Shown: piece after piece, positions 1 through 6,919 of the stretch
Layout: every line of letters begins with the position of its first letter
Numbering within the stretch: the first letter of the stretch is position 1
IMG/VR virus record: IMGVR_UViG_2737471841_000008
Coordinates: 1 to 6,919 of that record
Reading direction: 5' to 3' (one strand)
DNA length: 6,919 bases
From: a virus
Taxonomy: Duplodnaviria; Heunggongvirae; Uroviricota; Caudoviricetes
Program-made: the position numbers and the translations under genes
Notes under the pieces: generated by a model
The model's input: only the letters and a program-made list of their open reading frames with translations
Database searches by the model: none
What the model was told of the DNA's origin: nothing

Positions 1-585
1 TTACTCCCTGACAGGGTTCGTAGGCCACTCAATATCAGGTGCAGTTGATGTATCAACACGGTTCAGCAACACCCGATATTTTTTCCAGGCTTCCAGCAAT
101 GAGGTTTCTTCCTCCGTTGCGATTTCCAGATCTACAGCATCCTGAAGCGGCGCTATATGCTCACTGGCTACCTGCATCAGGCTGTTTTTTGTTTCTTCCG
201 CCTCCCGGATCCGGAACAGTTTTTCTGCTTCCGTATCCTTCACCCAGGCTGTGCCGTTCCACTTCTGAAACTCCCCTTCCGGGGATAACCAGGTGACATT
301 TTCCGGTAATGAGCCGAGTTCAGAAATAAATAACGCGTCGCCGGAAGCCACGTCATAAACCGTTTTACCCCGATGATCTTCAACGAGATGCCACGATGAC
401 TCATCACTGTTGAAAACAGCCACGAAACCAGCCGGAATATCTGGCGGTGCAATATCGGTACTGTTTGCTGGCAGACCTGTATGAGGCGGAATATATGCAT
501 CACCTTCACCAATAAATTCATTAGTTCCGGACAGCAGATTATAAATTTTTATGGTCCGTGGTTGTTCACTCATTCTGAATGCCAT
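1..585 (-). CDS. tfa: Tail fibre assembly protein (lambda Tfa-like, 194 aa)
   Basis: Complete ORF, ATG at 585-583, TAA at 3-1. Translation [18 protein letters not shown]...[11 protein letters not shown] matches from recall the phage lambda Tfa protein of the same length, almost residue for residue. Its ATG shares one base with the stop of the upstream stf ORF (TAATG at 583-587). Confidence 0.9.
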
Positions 586-1799
586 TATGCAAGCCTCACA
601 ATGTAGTTAAATGCGATGTTTTTGACGGTGTTTTCCGCGTTACCAGCAGCGTTAACGGTGATGGTGTGTCCATGTGAGCCAATCGCAACAGAGTGCGTAT
701 GAGCACCAATACCGACAGTATGTGCGTGAGCACCTGCAGATGCAGCTGTGCCGCTGACACTATGAGTGTGCGCTCCTGCAGCACTTGTATTCACACTGGC
801 CGCAGACACTACCTTATGTACTGACCCATTTTGTGACCACTGGCTGACTGCTGATGCGCCTGTGACACTATGAGTATGGTTTCCGGCACTTGCGGCTGTA
901 CCGCTCACACTGTGCGTATGCGCCCCGATGTTATTCGTGGATTTAGTGCCGTAATCAAACGACGATGTGGTTTTCGTCCCCAAATCCGTACTGGATGCAC
1001 TGGCGCTGTGGGTGTGCGATTTAATGCCGTCCTGTTCCTGAGACAATACGGCCCGACCACTGGCAGGTTTGCCCTTAATCGTCCAGCCACGCATATCAGG
1101 GATCACGCCTGACGGATAAGCGGTTGCAAGTTTCGGGTAAGCGGATTTGTCAAAAGTCTGCCCCTGCATCAGGGCATAACCAGACGGAACGGTATCTGAT
1201 GGCCACGGGATTGGTGCGCCAGGCGGATAAAACTGCTCTGATGGCGTATAGAGTGAATAAACTGTACCGTCCGTTAACCCTTCCGGCTTATTAGCAGAAT
1301 ATGCTGGTGACGTATGAATAGTCACGCTGGCATTACTGGTATAATCCCATTGAATATTTACACCAGTCGCATAATTTCCGATTGCAACGTAAATATCGTA
1401 AGTATCACCAGATGTATTGACCCAGGCAAAATTTGTAAACCCTGTCGATGTGCGCTGCCATAAAGCACCAGTAATCCCCTTCGGATTACCATTACCTGCA
1501 CGCAAAACAAGTTCAGATATACCTGCCTGTTGAGGTGACCCCACGTTAAATCCCGCGCCACCAATCAACGTAATTGAAACAACAGAACTCGCCTGTGGCA
1601 TGGTTACCGTTGCTAATTTGAACCAACCAGCACCACCGCTGAATGACATTGTTGTTGAGTTAAGCGTACCAATATCTTTCGGCGTCAGTGTTATATCCGC
1701 TGAAAGCGCCTTACCATTCACCTTACGGGCAGAAGGTAACCCTGCGTCTGTCAGCACAGTAAAACCCGGTGTGCATCGTTTTTGATTATTCCCGCACAC
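585..1799 (-). CDS. stf: Side tail fibre protein, C-terminal receptor-binding portion (5'-truncated remnant; the track start is a GTG directly after an in-frame TGA)
   Basis: 404-aa ORF ending ...[15 protein letters not shown] with repeated His-rich [15 protein letters not shown] units, as in lambda Stf / T4 gp37-type fibre tips. The segment [19 protein letters not shown] is a typical internal tail-fibre repeat. Full-length Stf proteins are much longer; here the reading frame is closed by an in-frame TGA at 1800-1802 (minus strand), so the N-terminal tail-attachment part is absent. Confidence 0.72.
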
Positions 1800-2048
1800 T
1801 CACGCAGAAGGAATTCCCCGTCGGGCTACGGTCATGGTTAATGCGGGAATACGGCGACGATACAGCGCAGCTAAAAGGGTAATGGACAGAAAGAGCGGTT
1901 TATTTCATTCCACAGGATTCTGAGTGCCCCCCTCCTCCAATAGGCTGAGCATCCACCTATATAGTTTTAATTTTCATCAATCCATTTAACTATCGTTTAA
2001 TTGTTGTCACATAGGATTCTGCCGTTTTTAACAATGCAGGATAATAAG

Positions 2049-2342
2049 ATGAAAAAAATGTTGTTTTCTGCCGCTCTGGCAATGCTTATTACAGGATGTG
2101 CTCAACAGACGTTTACTGTTGGAAACAAACCGACAGCAGTAACACCAAAGGAAACCATCACCCATCACTTCTTCGTTTCGGGAATTGGACAGGAGAAAAC
2201 TGTTGATGCAGCCAAAATTTGTGGCGGCGCAGAAAATGTTGTTAAAACAGAAACCCAGCAAACATTCGTAAATGGATTGCTCGGTTTTATTACTTTAGGC
2301 ATTTATACTCCGCTGGAAGCGCGTGTGTATTGCTCACAATAA
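2049..2342 (+). CDS. borD: Bor lipoprotein (lambda Bor-like serum-resistance / lysogenic-conversion lipoprotein, 97 aa)
   Basis: ATG at 2049 preceded by AGGA (2038-2041); stop TAA at 2340-2342. Translation MKKMLFSAALAMLITGCAQQTFTV...TPLEARVYCSQ has a lipoprotein signal with lipobox LITGC and is near-identical from recall to lambda Bor. Transcribed opposite to the lysis genes, as in lambda and DLP12. The upstream part of the track ORF (from 2001) is rejected. Confidence 0.9.
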   Translation: MKKMLFSAALAMLITGCAQQTFTVGNKPTAVTPKETITHHFFVSGIGQEKTVDAAKICGGAENVVKTETQQTFVNGLLGFITLGIYTPLEARVYCSQ

Positions 2343-2373
2343 TTGCATGAGTTGCCCATCGATATGGGCAGCT

Positions 2374-2835
2374 CTATCTGCACTGCTCATTAATATACTT
2401 CTGGGTTCCTTCCAGTTGTTTTTGCATAGTGATCAGCCTCTCTCTGAGGGTGAAATAATCCCGTTCAGCGGTGTCTGCCAGTCGGGGGGAGGCTGCATTA
2501 TCCACGCCGGAGGCGGTGGTGGCTTCACGCACTGACTGACAGACTGCTTTGATGTGCAACCGACGACGACCAGCGGCAACATCATCACGCAGAGCATCAT
2601 TTTCAGCTTTCGCATCAGCTAACTCCTTCGTGTATTTTGCATCGAGCGCAGCAACATCACGCTGACGCATCTGCATGTCAGTAATTGCCGCGTTCGCCAG
2701 CTTCAGTTCTCTGGCATTTTTGTCGCGCTGGGCTTTGTAGGTAATGGCGTTATCACGGTAATGATTAACAGCCCATGACAGGCCGACGATGATGCAGATA
2801 ACCAGAGCGGAGATAATCGCGGTTACTCTGTTCAT
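2374..2835 (-). CDS. rzpD: Rz i-spanin (inner-membrane spanin subunit, 153 aa)
   Basis: [39 protein letters not shown]...KYINEQCR, essentially lambda Rz from recall, with an N-terminal transmembrane segment. ATG at 2835-2833 overlaps the endolysin stop (ATGA at 2832-2835). The track start at 2847 is an upstream GTG and is rejected. Confidence 0.9.
2433..2615 (-). CDS. rzoD: Rz1 o-spanin (outer-membrane lipoprotein spanin subunit, 60 aa), embedded in the +1 frame of Rz
   Basis: [24 protein letters not shown]...[29 protein letters not shown]: lipobox VVVGC and a proline-rich periplasmic part, matching lambda Rz1 from recall. Lies wholly inside the Rz coding sequence in another frame. Confidence 0.85.
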
Positions 2836-3329
2836 TGCTGACCCCACAAACAGATTTCACGCTCAATCTCACGACGAGTCATGAGACCTTTCCATTGCTT
2901 ACCGCCAGCATATGTCCAGCGACGTAGCTGATCACATGCGCCTTTGATATCGCCCTGGTTTATTTTGCGAAGAAGCGTCGATGTTCTGAAATTGCCAGCA
3001 CCCACGTTGTAAACGAATGAGTAAAAAGCGCCGCGCGTTGTTTCCGGTATATCGACTTTGATGTACGGGTTAATTTGTCTGGCGACAGTGGCAAGGTCTT
3101 TATTCAAGAGTGCTTTGCATTCTGCTTTGGTATACGTTTTACCGAGCATGATGTCTTTTCCTGTATGCCCGTGACATACAGTCCATACACCAACAATATC
3201 TTTATATGGTATGTAGCTGACACCTTCCAGACCATCGTCACCACTCGGACCAGTGATGAGCACAGACGCTATGGCAACAGCCCCACCACCAATAGCAGCT
3301 GCTACAGCCTTGCGTAATGATGGCGACAT
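2832..3329 (-). CDS. rrrD: SAR endolysin (phage 21 R-type lysozyme with N-terminal signal-anchor-release domain, 165 aa)
   Basis: [57 protein letters not shown]...: a Gly/Ala-rich weakly hydrophobic N-terminus followed by a lysozyme-like body, matching phage 21 R / DLP12 RrrD from recall. ATG at 3329-3327 overlaps the holin stop (TAATG). Confidence 0.9.
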
Positions 3330-3544
3330 TATTCACCTCTCGCAGCCTTGCGCTTATCTTCTTTAATCTTGAAATAAAGGTTTGTCAGGTACGTCAGCAG
3401 GCCAAATACCAGGCTACCCAGCACTCCAATTGCCGCCCACTGTGAGGGCGTGACTTTATCTAGCAGCTGTAAAAACCAGTACCCGGCACTACCTGCTGAG
3501 GTGCCATAGGCGACACCCGTTGTTAACTTATCCATGGATTTCAT
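3329..3544 (-). CDS. essD: Pinholin (phage 21 S-type class II holin, 71 aa) with dual-start motif Met1-Lys2-Ser3-Met4
   Basis: [71 protein letters not shown], near-identical from recall to phage 21 S. RBS GAGGTGG at 3549-3555 (minus strand). ATG codons at 3544-3542 and 3535-3533 give the 71/68 dual-start arrangement. Confidence 0.9.
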
Positions 3545-3667
3545 AACCCCACCTCGCAGACAAAGCGGGTGTAAATTGAGGGAATACTACGAAACGTAAC
3601 AGACTCGGAGTCAGTGAATAACTCAGGTATTGGGTTATCAGCTAATATCGAGACTCAAAAAATGGAA

Positions 3668-3689
3668 AAACCCGCTCGACGGCGGGTTT
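3668..3689 (-). terminator. Intrinsic terminator-like hairpin on the minus strand, ~125 nt upstream of the holin start (candidate tR'-type terminator)
   Basis: Plus strand aaacccgc-tcgacg-gcgggttt forms an 8-bp stem with a 6-nt loop. On the minus strand the stem is followed immediately by TTCCATTTTTT (RC of 3655-3667). On the plus strand it is not followed by a T-tract, so it is minus-strand specific. Confidence 0.45.
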
Positions 3690-3999
3690 AAGCTGTGTGA
3701 CGAAGTAACCACTCTTAACAGCATAACCAATTTTTTACGTACGTAAACCACTAAATGATATTTGCGAGAATGCTACCGAGTATTGAAAACACCACTACAA
3801 ATACATAAGCAAATCTCAACAAATAACCAACAAATTATTTCCAGTGTTATTTTTAGCTTATTTAAATTGAACCTTCAAATTATAGAGCGCTTATAAATAA
3901 CAGTCGTTAATATAAATTGGCTAATAGATTTATTTTTATTCAGCAAAGAGCTATGAATAGGATTCGATAGAAAAAAGTTCAGATAAAAATAGAGATCTA

Positions 4000-4116
4000 C
4001 TTCACAAATCAAACGAGAAACCAAAACTTACATCTTGAAATAATCACATTGATTAGATGAATATTTATCGCGCAGTGACATCATTTTTTAATAATAGTTC
4101 AAAAAAAGGGCTCACG
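4000..4116 (+). promoter_or_regulatory. Porin gene promoter / 5' leader region, containing an OmpR-box-like sequence CTTACATCTTGAAATAATCA (4027-4046)
   Basis: AT-rich region immediately upstream of the porin start. 4027-4046 resembles, from memory, the ompC C1 OmpR site TTTACATTTTGAAACATCTA (about 14 of 20 positions, the left half nearly perfect). Exact -35/-10 elements not resolved. Confidence 0.3.
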
Positions 4117-5214
4117 ATGAAAAAATTAACAGTGGCAATTTCTGCTGTAGCTGCATCAGTACTGATGGCGATGTCTGCTCAGGCAGCTGAAATTTATAAT
4201 AAAGACAGTAACAAGCTGGATCTGTACGGGAAAGTTAATGCTAAGCACTACTTCTCCTCTAATGATGCAGATGATGGTGATACTACTTATGCCCGTCTTG
4301 GCTTCAAAGGTGAAACCCAAATCAACGATCAACTGACTGGTTTCGGTCAGTGGGAATATGAATTCAAAGGCAACCGCGCTGAATCTCAAGGTTCCTCCAA
4401 AGACAAAACCCGTCTTGCATTTGCAGGCCTGAAATTCGGTGACTACGGCTCAATCGATTACGGCCGTAACTACGGTGTAGCATACGACATCGGTGCGTGG
4501 ACTGACGTTCTGCCAGAATTCGGTGGCGATACCTGGACCCAAACAGATGTGTTCATGACTGGTCGCACCACTGGTGTTGCAACCTATCGTAACAACGACT
4601 TCTTTGGTCTGGTTGATGGTCTGAACTTTGCTGCTCAGTACCAAGGCAAAAACGATCGTAGCGATTTCGATAACTACACTGAAGGTAACGGTGATGGCTT
4701 CGGTTTCTCTGCTACCTATGAATACGAAGGATTCGGTATCGGTGCAACTTATGCGAAATCTGATCGTACCGACACTCAAGTTAATGCAGGGAAAGTTCTT
4801 CCTGAAGTATTTGCTTCCGGTAAAAATGCAGAAGTTTGGGCCGCAGGTCTGAAATATGACGCTAACAACATTTACCTGGCCACTACCTATTCTGAAACCC
4901 AGAATATGACTGTATTTGCTGATCACTTCGTTGCTAATAAAGCCCAAAACTTCGAAGCTGTTGCACAATATCAGTTCGATTTCGGTCTGCGTCCGTCCGT
5001 TGCTTACCTGCAATCTAAAGGTAAGGATCTTGGAGTATGGGGCGATCAGGACTTAGTCAAATATGTTGATGTAGGTGCAACCTATTACTTCAACAAAAAT
5101 ATGTCTACTTTCGTTGATTACAAAATCAACCTGCTTGACAAAAATGACTTCACTAAAGCACTCGGTGTAAGCACTGATGACATCGTTGCTGTAGGTCTGG
5201 TTTACCAGTTCTAA
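4117..5214 (+). CDS. nmpC: Outer-membrane general porin, phage-encoded NmpC/Lc type (OmpC/OmpF/PhoE family), intact, 365 aa
   Basis: ATG at 4117 with RBS AGGG at 4107-4110; stop TAA at 5212-5214. Signal peptide [23 protein letters not shown], mature N-terminus [16 protein letters not shown], porin hallmarks throughout and the C-terminal VGLVYQF ending in Phe. The track start at 4057 (MNIYRAV...) is rejected because the signal peptide begins at 4117. Confidence 0.92.
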
Positions 5215-5230
5215 TCTGATTACGAAAAAG

Positions 5231-5264
5231 ATATGTTGCGGGAGGCGTTGCCTCCCCAACATAT
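5231..5264 (-). terminator. Strong intrinsic terminator on the minus strand just past the 3' end of the porin gene (alternative candidate tR' for Q-dependent late transcription)
   Basis: atatgttg-c-gggaggc / gttg / cctccc-caacatat forms an imperfect ~14-bp GC-rich stem with one bulged C. On the minus strand it is followed by CTTTTTCGTA (RC of 5221-5230); on the plus strand there is no T-tract after it. Confidence 0.45.
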
Positions 5265-5352
5265 AAGTGGCTCCCTCAAGCCACTTCCTTTAGAAGCACA
5301 ACCTTGCTTCTAACTATATAAACCTTCTGTTATATATTACCCTTTATTTTTG

Positions 5353-5386
5353 GGGGCGTCTCAACGCCCCATTTTTAATAATTTTT
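5353..5386 (+). terminator. Intrinsic terminator on the plus strand (likely porin mRNA terminator)
   Basis: gggggcg-tctcaa-cgcccc stem-loop (5353-5370) followed on the plus strand by ATTTTTAATAATTTTT. On the minus strand it is followed by an A-rich tract, so it is not a minus-strand terminator. Confidence 0.45.
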
Positions 5387-5403
5387 AGTAAACAATTGGC
5401 ATA

Positions 5404-5787
5404 TTAATTAGAGTTATTAACAACGATATCCATCTCTAACCGGATATCTAATGCCATTAACATCCCTTCAATTATGCCCTCAGCCTTCTGTAACCTTTTC
5501 CCGATATAACCATCAGAGCAGCAATGCTTACCTGCCAGTGACATGAATGTCATACCGACTACATAATAATCTACTAATAAATCGTGCAAATCGCTGTTGT
5601 TCTTTTTCAGACGGGCCATGCACCCGCAAATGATCATCGCGTCATCGTCACAACATTGCGGGCGAGATTTTACTTTTGAAGGAATTAATCCCTTAAAACC
5701 GGCGGCAATGGACGACCAGGTCACATCTTCATGATTATTAGCCGCCCACGCTCCCCAACGTTCAAGAACCATCTGAATATCACGCAT
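5404..5787 (-). CDS. quuD: Late-gene antiterminator Q (Phage_antitermQ family; DLP12 QuuD-like, 127 aa)
   Basis: [34 protein letters not shown]...[16 protein letters not shown]...[12 protein letters not shown]... with a Cys-rich putative Zn-binding cluster. ATG at 5787-5785 with GGAG 7 nt upstream. The track start at 5802 is a TTG and is rejected. Confidence 0.85.
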
Positions 5788-6117
5788 TAACTTTCTCCAC
5801 AAAATCAGGCCAGCACACCAATCGCCAGTGCGCGATCGATAAAACGAAATATCAGCTCAAGCTGGGAGCCATACTTCTCTTCAAATGCCACGGTAACCAG
5901 GTCCACCTCGCCTGATGTGGCTAAAAGCAGGCACATAACAGCTAAGTATTTTCAACCAGAGAGAATCCTTAGCGTTGTGGTGAATGCGGCTCAGCGCACG
6001 CGGGTTAAGGTTGAGGCTGACAGTCGACCTTCTGTGGATACCCACCCGCCTGGTGTGCAACCTTCGCCAGGCACCGGGAGGCACCCGGCACCACAACTTT
6101 ATGCTGTGTGTAGTCCT

Positions 6118-6164
6118 GGCGGTACCAGCTTGTACCCTTGCTTCCGGCTGGTACCGTCCTTTTT
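6118..6164 (+). terminator. Terminator-like hairpin on the plus strand inside the non-coding region upstream of the integrase-like ORF
   Basis: cggtaccagc (6120-6129) pairs perfectly with gctggtaccg (6147-6156), enclosing a 17-nt loop, and is followed by TCCTTTTT (6157-6164). No T-tract follows it on the minus strand. Confidence 0.35.
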
Positions 6165-6253
6165 ACAAAACAGAGAAGAGCATCACCGGACGACGGGCTC
6201 ATAACCCAATCCATCCGGGCGGCAGTCACCGCAGGTGTTCTTCTCTGTTTTGT
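6165..6253. repeat. Perfect 15-bp inverted repeat (acaaaacagagaaga / tcttctctgttttgt) separated by 59 nt, directly upstream of the integrase-like ORF
   Basis: Arms at 6165-6179 and 6239-6253 are exact reverse complements. An extra cacc/ggtg pairing (6184-6187 / 6234-6237) extends the stem and the intervening sequence contains further ccgg/ccgg pairing. Confidence 0.6.
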
Positions 6254-6301
6254 GGAGAAACTAACCGACCTTGCAGGGTCGATATGATGAGGAGCAGCAA
6301 A

Positions 6302-6919
6302 ATGGCTAGCGAACGCAGTACTGATGTGCAGGCATTTATCGGGGAGCTGGACGGCGGCGTATTTGAAACCAAAATCGGCGCAGTTCTCAGTGAAGTCGCT
6401 TCCGGTGTGATGAACACGAAAACCAAAGGTAAGGTCTCGCTCAACCTGGAAATCGAACCGTTTGATGAGAACCGAGTGAAAATCAAACACAAACTCTCAT
6501 ATGTTCGCCCGACTACCGCCTGTAAAGTGTTGCGTGATCAAATAGGCAAGCATCACAAATGGGTGTTTGTACATACCAAGGCGGCTAAGCGAGCAGATGG
6601 AACATCAACGCCTGCGGTCAGGAAGATGCGCATCGACAGCAAGACATCATGGCTATCAGCTTGTCGTCGTGCAGGAATTGAAGATTTCCGTTTCCATGAC
6701 CTCAGACACACCTGGGCAAGCTGGCTGATCCAGTCAGGCGTCCCATTATCTGTGCTTCAGGAAATGGGCGGATGGGAGTCCATAGAAATGGTTCGTAGGT
6801 ATGCTCACCTTGCGCCTAATCATTTGACAGAGCATGCAAGGAAAATAGACGACATTTTTGGTGATAATGTCCCAAATATGTCCCACTGTGGAATTATGGA
6901 GGATATAAAGAAGGCGTAA
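6302..6919 (+). CDS. Integrase-like ORF (205 aa): unrecognised ~85-aa N-terminal part fused in frame to a tyrosine-recombinase C-terminal catalytic tail; probable integrase remnant
   Basis: ATG at 6302 with AGGAG at 6290-6294; stop TAA at 6917-6919. The C-terminal half ...[60 protein letters not shown] carries box II H-x-x-R (HDLRHT), the conserved Trp, and the catalytic Tyr in RYAHL. No box I TGxRxxE motif is present in the N-terminal part. The same frame stays open back to an ATG at 5984, but that stretch translates to Arg/Cys/Trp-rich sequence that does not look protein-like. Confidence 0.6.

Follow-up and report, generated by a model that had tools for sequence, protein, structure and literature searches.

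How can a host tolerate an intact phage late-gene antiterminator beside a complete lysis cassette once the early region that normally times its expression has gone? The question is raised by the 6,919-nt stretch of DNA analysed here (hereafter the window), in which the antiterminator gene Q stands with the genes for holin, endolysin and both spanins (S, R, Rz and Rz1). The initial annotation, made from the letters of the window, reasoned that Q without an early region would be unregulated and lethal, and offered three ways out: Q is silent, the two minus-strand terminators block read-through, or a new host-controlled promoter in the segment 5788–6301 has turned the cassette into a domesticated, conditionally triggered lysis module.

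Identity of the locus and its deletion scar

The locus is the cryptic prophage DLP12 of E. coli, a lambdoid remnant at the tRNA gene argU. Searches of complete E. coli genomes placed the segment in DLP12, at argU beside fimZ, and the window aligned with K-12 DLP12 from borD to quuD (1995–5822) at 96–99% nucleotide identity, in blocks of 96.1% (1995–5156) and 98.7% (5148–5822), with the quuD-porin-essD-rrrD-rzpD/rzoD-bor block present and highly identical to its K-12 counterpart. The whole window was recovered at 100% identity from five draft E. coli assemblies at NCBI, in which the tRNA-Arg(UCU) gene argU starts 15 nt past the window end on the Q side and is followed by fimZ, the sfm operon and folD; the opposite flank in the matching assemblies carries a methyltransferase gene, appY and ompT. 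The layout of the argU/fimZ integration site is identical in K-12. Of 5,426 complete E. coli genomes, 2,384 (44%) carry quuD together with the region that follows it, and in none is the arrangement exactly that of the window.

The initial annotation had listed cI, cro, N and the pR-O-P-nin region as absent, and the present analysis agrees: none of cI, cro, N, O, P or the nin genes lies in the window, and only fragments of a DUF968 gene, of the yfdP region and of intD are found past Q. Nor is an early region concealed just outside the window on the Q side, because argU and fimZ directly follow there in the five assemblies. The following features lie upstream of Q or at the far end of the remnant:

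5788–5822, minus strand: 35 nt of native sequence before quuD, with the GGAG ribosome-binding site; collinear with K-12 DLP12 as far as 5822
5805–5895, minus strand: 3' end, about 30 codons, of a nin-region gene of the DUF968/YdfU (HNH) type, PF06147
5894–5896, no strand: deletion junction 1, GGTA/ACCAGG, with TA microhomology
5896–6301, plus strand: early-left remnant upstream of yfdP, SfV/CPS-53-like, a frameshifted hypothetical gene (named after the E10 annotation); 99.7% identical to Kati 1548–2174
6302–6919, plus strand: in-frame YfdP'-'IntD fusion open reading frame, 205 aa, PF27127 and PF00589
2049–2342, plus strand: bor/iss lipoprotein moron, PF06291; product identical to phage 21 Bor at 96 of 97 residues

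The DUF968 remnant matched PF06147 with E=7.9e-7 at profile positions 146–171 of 171, and a full-length gene of this type stands upstream of Q in phages Kati and PhiR49_1. Phage Kati matched the window at three places, namely Q with the 3' end of the DUF968 gene (98.8%), the yfdP fragment (99.7%) and the 3' end of int (100%). Relative to Kati, about 7.3 kb of early region is missing at junction 1, and in that phage the roughly 7.3 kb between yfdP and Q hold the HNH/DUF968 gene, regulators, replication genes and cro/repressor-like genes. The yfdP-region piece measures 626 nt in full (5894–6519) and is oriented opposite to Q. At its other end, junction 2 (6514–6519, TA/CCGC microhomology) marks a deletion of about 3.3 kb that joins yfdP to the middle of int, and the resulting fusion frame consists of the first ~72 codons of yfdP and the last ~133 codons of the integrase gene intD, covering PF00589 only at profile positions 66–171. 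Of intD, the last 406 nt alone remain, 98.8% identical to K-12 intD. All that once lay from bor to the tail fibre, ybcV, ybcW, ylcI and nohD included, has gone in a third deletion.

With microhomology of 2–6 bp at the junctions, the early region was lost by ordinary illegitimate deletions, which left the scar 5788–6519 and a truncated integrase. In this E. coli lineage, such deletions have shrunk the prophage to about 8 kb comprising tfa, a 5'-truncated tail-fibre gene, bor, the Rz/Rz1-R-S genes, the porin gene, Q, the scar and the 3' end of int. The YfdP'-'IntD fusion protein was found in 19 public contigs, five of which contain the entire window at 100% identity. An Rfam scan of the window returned only IS009, inside tfa, and nothing near Q; a search of the window for tRNA or tmRNA genes found none. 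The GC-rich stretch 5900–6300 was considered as an RNA gene and rejected, being the remnant of the yfdP region.

The Q gene, its presumptive target and the lysis cassette

The interval that the initial annotation had assigned to Q is exactly the coding sequence of quuD, and downstream of it on the same strand come a leader with an intrinsic terminator and then S, R and Rz, with the promoter of the leader only predicted. The features of this part are as follows:

5404–5787, minus strand: quuD, intact Q21-family late-gene antiterminator, 127 aa, PF06530
5353–5370, plus strand: intrinsic terminator of the convergent porin gene, GGGGCGTCTCAACGCCCC then a T-run
5327–5387, minus strand: predicted late promoter pR', weight-matrix score about 8, probable position
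5225–5313, minus strand: leader by RNA folding, with hairpins at 5313–5290, 5286–5265 and 5264–5231, then CUUUUU at 5230–5225
4117–5214, plus strand: intact NmpC/OmpD-type porin moron, antisense to the late transcript, PF00267 (E=1e-156)
3545–4116, no strand: AT-rich intergenic region, 30–33% GC, from composition and alignment
3655–3689, minus strand: second intrinsic terminator, about 110 nt before essD, stem 3689–3668 then a U-run
3329–3544, minus strand: essD, S21-type pinholin/antiholin with dual start Met1/Met4, PF04971
2832–3329, minus strand: rrrD, SAR endolysin, PF00959
2374–2835, minus strand: rzpD, i-spanin, PF03245
2433–2615, minus strand: rzoD, o-spanin, in another reading frame inside rzpD, PF06085

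The quuD frame has an ATG start, a TAA stop and a GGAG ribosome-binding site (5798–5795) 7 nt before the ATG. Its product aligned end to end with the Pfam family Phage_antitermQ (PF06530; E=8.5e-54, 181 bits against a cutoff of 26), residues 1–118 falling on profile positions 1–118 of 118, and residues 8–87 matched the solved Q21 structures 6JNX and 6P18 (E=7.6e-8). The protein differs from K-12 QuuD at a single residue (126/127 identical) and equals the Q proteins of phages Kati, PhiR70_1 and ev243 (127/127). Because it is identical to the protein of viable phages, Q is very probably functional if made. Phage 434B is annotated as a 434 recombinant with crossover points in ylcG and near S that carries K-12 DLP12 quuD, the downstream spacer, nmpC::IS5 and essD; Q of DLP12, acting on its target promoter, can therefore drive a phage's late operon over a distance of more than 3 kb.

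The lysis genes are equally well preserved. EssD is a class II S21-type holin, identical to K-12 EssD at 71/71 residues and to S21 at 61/71, whose N-terminus MKSM gives the two starts Met1 and Met4. RrrD is identical to both K-12 RrrD and phage 21 R21 at 160/165 residues, and a Gly/Ala-rich SAR-type N-terminus and the catalytic triad E35/D44/T50 can be read from its sequence. RzpD shares 147/153 residues with K-12 and 149/153 with phage 21 Rz, and RzoD, with the lipobox VVGC, is identical to phage 21 Rz1 at 60/60 and to K-12 at 59/60. Since the holin dual start, the endolysin SAR domain and triad and the Rz1 lipobox are all kept, the cassette looks fully functional as judged from its sequence. 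Pfam matches and the identities to K-12 and phage 21 thus bear out the first impression that Q, S, R, Rz and Rz1 are all intact. Lambda recombinants with R and Rz replaced by the DLP12 copies are active (PMC3945230).

Between Q and the cassette lies the presumptive target of Q. The 189-nt spacer from the Q stop to the porin stop is 100% identical to that of K-12, and with close relatives 96% identical throughout, conservation could not delimit pR'. The predicted promoter is made up of an AT-rich UP-like tract (5387–5371), TTGAGA (5364–5359) and TAATAT (5339–5334), and it scores only about 8 because of its 19-nt spacer; the assignment is therefore a weak prediction, with either this long spacer or a poor −10 element. 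A conserved 9-mer, ATATAACAG at 5335–5327, is likely the −10/start-site core of the predicted promoter: it lies 77 nt past the quuD stop and 80 nt past the stop of a diverged Q allele (L016, L019), whose C-terminal third and downstream DNA differ from those of the window. For a sigma-dependent pause element at pR', the sequence offers a −10-like TATAGT close by, at 5318–5313. No direct repeats were found in the Q-porin spacer, and no Q-binding element was recognised.

A transcript starting near 5328 would fold into a leader of −46.4 kcal/mol (z=−5.84, with 0/200 shuffles as stable), resembling the short terminated leader of the lambda 6S type. Its last hairpin, a 15-bp stem followed by CUUUUU, is an intrinsic terminator equivalent to tR'. 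The second terminator, an 8-bp GC-rich stem followed by UUUUUCCAUUUUUU, is invariant in 6/6 aligned sequences, and both minus-strand terminators named in the initial annotation therefore exist (5264–5231 with CUUUUU, and the 3689–3668 stem with its U-run). The AT-rich region 3545–4116 contains the promoter side of the porin gene as well as the essD-upstream sequence that served in a K-12 reporter. Taken together, Q, the pR'-tR' unit, the antisense porin gene, the second terminator and the phage-21-type lysis cassette constitute a complete late-control and lysis module, the same as is used by viable lambdoid phages.

Transcription into Q and the weighing of alternatives

In lambdoid phages, the delayed-early gene Q lacks its own promoter and depends on transcription that starts at pR and passes through the nin region. 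The map of phage 21 displays the same arrangement: Q is supplied from pR by way of nin, and the interval from nin to Q has no annotated promoter. Once pR is deleted, Q therefore loses its only known promoter and becomes promoterless rather than unregulated, and the premise from which the initial annotation had set out fails. The proposed safeguard of terminators blocking read-through misreads the action of Q in turn, since Q-modified polymerase overrides terminators, which matter only while Q is scarce.

On the Q strand of 5788–6301, no consensus match to a promoter was found, and the sigma-70 weight-matrix scores (at most 5.6) are background. Over the whole scanned region, 97 promoter matches were counted against a shuffle mean of 125, thus below the shuffled level, in a sigma-70 scan that would miss weak or non-sigma-70 promoters. 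A single strong co-directional site was found, the argU promoter (TTGACT-16-TATAAT; score 14.5; 11/12 matches), at window-equivalent positions 7070–7043, outside the window and about 1.26 kb upstream of Q. With promoter motifs missing, expression of Q would be low or nil, and Q is probably a promoterless gene, off or nearly off, in a decayed DLP12 that has lost its early region. A silent or nearly silent Q is likewise the best fit among the options first put forward and agrees with the evidence.

That a new host-controlled promoter in 5788–6301 drives Q, yielding a domesticated and conditionally triggered lysis module, is very improbable. The 35 nt before Q, ribosome-binding site included, are indeed native, and the same ~106 nt upstream of Q are common to three lineages. 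The Q strand of the segment, however, has no promoter-like site above background, and the segment itself is a patchwork of deletions in which a DUF968 3' fragment abuts yfdP-region fragments of the opposite strand. Neither is it conserved, as K-12 carries nin genes there (ylcG/rusA) and E10 and KSC9 have other junctions: upstream of Q, 35 nt are common to K-12, and K-12, E10, KSC9 and the window all differ beyond about 106 nt. Such variability between strains is the opposite of what is expected for a recruited regulatory region, and the exact arrangement is missing from all 5,426 complete genomes. It is also unlikely, if less strikingly so, that read-through from the argU promoter sets the level of Q, the lysis module then following argU activity (growth rate, Hha). 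This promoter is strong, about 1.26 kb upstream, with its tRNA on the Q strand; in the 160 nt that follow the tRNA, the folding is no more stable than that of shuffled sequence (z=0.00), and only a weak hairpin with UAUUUU behind it is seen. Binding of Hha near argU and DLP12, with an effect on the lysis genes, has been reported (PMC2408971). Against this, the 1.15 kb from the tRNA to Q would be transcribed as untranslated antisense RNA, modestly C-rich over 6200–6900 and a typical Rho substrate, with weak terminator-like hairpins at 6283–6264, 5871–5853 and 5828–5810, and a functional Q supplied constitutively should poison the cell, whereas the allele is stable, the five assemblies agreeing at 100% identity. 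The stronger form of this idea, in which successive deletions have wired a functional Q and cassette to the argU promoter with Rho as the only check, is quite improbable; it would amount to an accidental conditional autolysis circuit, set off by failure of Rho-dependent termination or by a burst of argU transcription. On that reading, three independent deletions that end at one base ~106 nt upstream of Q would hint at selection for Q together with its ribosome-binding site. If true, feeding of Q from argU would make the locus an elegant case, arisen in nature, of a phage lysis switch brought under a host promoter.

A possible but doubtful alternative is that the module has been kept by selection for a host function such as cell-wall turnover, biofilm formation or vesicle control, with Q and RpoE positively regulating the lysis genes at a promoter upstream of essD, as for K-12 DLP12. 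According to PMC7918800, the DLP12 SRRz/Rz1 operon is controlled by its own Q, RpoE and Hha, and a reporter of the region upstream of essD (fragment −121 to +650) is active, its output changing in response to pH, osmolarity and temperature. All five genes are intact in a remnant stripped of almost everything else, their differences from K-12 are mostly synonymous (27 synonymous and 5 non-synonymous in R, 4 and 0 in S), and quuD with its downstream region persists in the 2,384 complete genomes mentioned above. The synonymous excess may nonetheless date from life as an active phage, because the same alleles occur in viable phages. The module is also dispensable, since the endolysin gene is truncated at the same locus in KSC9 and, according to PMC7918800, Shigella has lost the module. 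A simple scan for the RpoE consensus (GGAACTT, 15–17 nt, TCAAA) found nothing near essD or Q, its single match, below chance expectation, lying inside the porin antisense, and it did not reproduce the published assignment of the essD promoter. Selection for a host role is compatible with low Q expression, to which it would add a selected role.

The reading of Q as promoterless after the loss of the early region would account for host survival as follows. Deletion of cI-cro-N-O-P-nin would have left Q without a promoter and, by default, off or expressed at a very low level. Transcripts from pR' would then stop at tR' (5264–5225) and at the terminator before essD (3689–3655), and we infer that the holin never attains its triggering level, so that the host survives. 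Residual Q would arise only through read-through, for example from the co-directional argU promoter, which Rho and the weak hairpins probably damp. No strong intrinsic terminator was found between the argU promoter and Q, and such read-through could therefore exceed a negligible level. Weak expression of the lysis genes from promoter activity close to essD may occur as well, as reported for K-12 DLP12. In K-12, a Q knockout, reportedly that of Rueggeberg in 2013, is said to have a phenotype, and some Q would therefore be expressed there; in that strain, 5.6 kb of co-directional genes stand upstream of Q, a context missing in the window.

Relation to DLP12 of K-12, viable lambdoid phages and phage 21

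That DLP12 lacks an immunity region yet keeps Q and the lysis genes is long established, and published roles of its lysis genes include biofilm formation, cell-wall turnover and vesicle production. The window shares with DLP12 of K-12 the integration site, the gene order, the orientation and the lack of cI, cro, N, O and P. K-12 DLP12 keeps a full intD, the nin region (ybcN-ninE-ybcO-rusA-ylcG), emrE/ybcKLM and ybcV-nohD, all of which the window has lost; the left arm of the window is SfV/CPS-53-like (yfdP), unlike that of K-12 DLP12, and nmpC of K-12 is interrupted by IS5 whereas the porin gene of the window is intact. The locus is thus a more decayed allele of a cryptic prophage module that has long been known and for which domestication has already been proposed in print. 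This part of the proposal in the initial annotation stands as a published idea for DLP12, and the part that placed a new Q promoter in 5788–6301 finds no support.

The locus matters little beyond its correct annotation. It does illustrate how a lambdoid prophage is safely grounded once its early region is lost: an intact Q and lysis cassette can persist without killing the host, because the sole promoter that feeds Q has gone. A module grounded in this way can be recaptured by incoming phages. The Q-porin-S-R block occurs in many deposited phage genomes, those of Kati, PhiR30_1, PhiR70_1, mEp332, ev243 and 434B among them, at 90–99% identity to the block of the window. These viable phages keep the ~7.3 kb of regulators and replication genes from yfdP to Q, a full integrase and the structural genes, which the window is without.

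With phage 21, the window shares the Q family PF06530, a promoter-terminator unit directly after Q, and lysis proteins that are 86–100% identical. In the annotation of phage 21, pR', the Q-binding element, the pause element and the terminator come directly after the Q stop. The two Q proteins differ widely, only 39/169 residues being identical in a global alignment, and a search that allowed three mismatches did not find the phage 21 Q-binding element (ATTGAGCA/AATGAGCA) in the window. The interval from pR' to S differs as well: the window has about 1.9 kb made up of the antisense porin gene and the AT-rich spacer, together with the second terminator, whereas phage 21 has two tRNAs in this place.

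Deletion endpoints upstream of quuD

Three lineages carry three different deletions upstream of the Q antiterminator gene quuD (window 5404-5787, minus strand), and in all of them the deletion starts at essentially the same base (...GCCACGGTA/), which lies approximately 106 nt upstream of the start codon (ATG) of this gene.

Deletion junctions upstream of quuD (a slash marks the junction)
Window, 5892-5896: GGTA/ACCAGG
Strain KSC9: GGTA/CCCGTT, joined to yfdQ
Strain E10: GGTATCC/ACAACAG
Coordinates in the comparison loci covering KSC9 and E10: L001, 12575-12585; L003, 9112-9122

At two of these junctions, those of the window and KSC9, a TA stands before the right-hand partner. The common endpoint could reflect a deletion hot spot, a nested deletion series, or constraint that keeps Q together with its ribosome-binding site.

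At window 6302-6919 (plus strand), an in-frame fusion created by a deletion combines the first ~72 codons of the early-left-region gene yfdP with the last ~133 codons of the integrase gene intD. The resulting 205-aa YfdP'-'IntD product was called as a protein in 19 public contigs; it contains the C-terminal part only of the recombinase catalytic domain and is probably inactive.

The argU promoter and a predicted pR' element flanking Q

The tRNA gene argU and its near-consensus promoter, both directed at Q, lie just past the window end (10634-10769, minus strand, in L004, a locus matching the window at 100% identity). The distance from argU and this promoter to Q is ~1.15-1.26 kb in the window lineage, whereas it is ~9 kb in K-12, and no strong intrinsic terminator separates argU from Q in the window lineage.

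Downstream of Q, the 9-mer ATATAACAG occurs at window 5327-5335 (minus strand) and, in two loci with a diverged Q allele (L016 and L019), 80 nt past the Q stop codons. It stands at a near-equal distance from the stop codon in two diverged Q alleles, the remaining downstream DNA being unrelated. For this Q subfamily, the 9-mer probably forms either the -10/start-site core of the predicted late promoter pR' or a portion of its Q-loading site.

Tail-fibre remnant

Packaging, head and tail genes are all absent from the window. A 5'-truncated tail-fibre ORF (585-1799, minus strand) retains His-rich Phage_fiber repeats with GAHTHS motifs as well as a collar domain, and joins the ylcI-bor intergenic region at 1732-2048. 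Within the tail-fibre assembly gene, at 44-242 (minus strand), the Rfam family IS009 (RF02111) matches over its full length with 222.7 bits; it is probable that the family was built from this conserved coding region and does not represent an independent RNA gene.

Porin gene and the late module in phage 434B

The NmpC/OmpD-type porin gene (window 4117-5214, plus strand) is intact and converges on the late transcript, so that porin transcription and any read-through from pR' would collide. In the K-12 DLP12 prophage, by contrast, nmpC is interrupted by IS5. The genome of phage 434B (OL657227.1) is annotated as a recombinant that acquired the K-12 DLP12 segment quuD..nmpC::IS5..essD, showing that a live phage recaptured the late module of a cryptic prophage.
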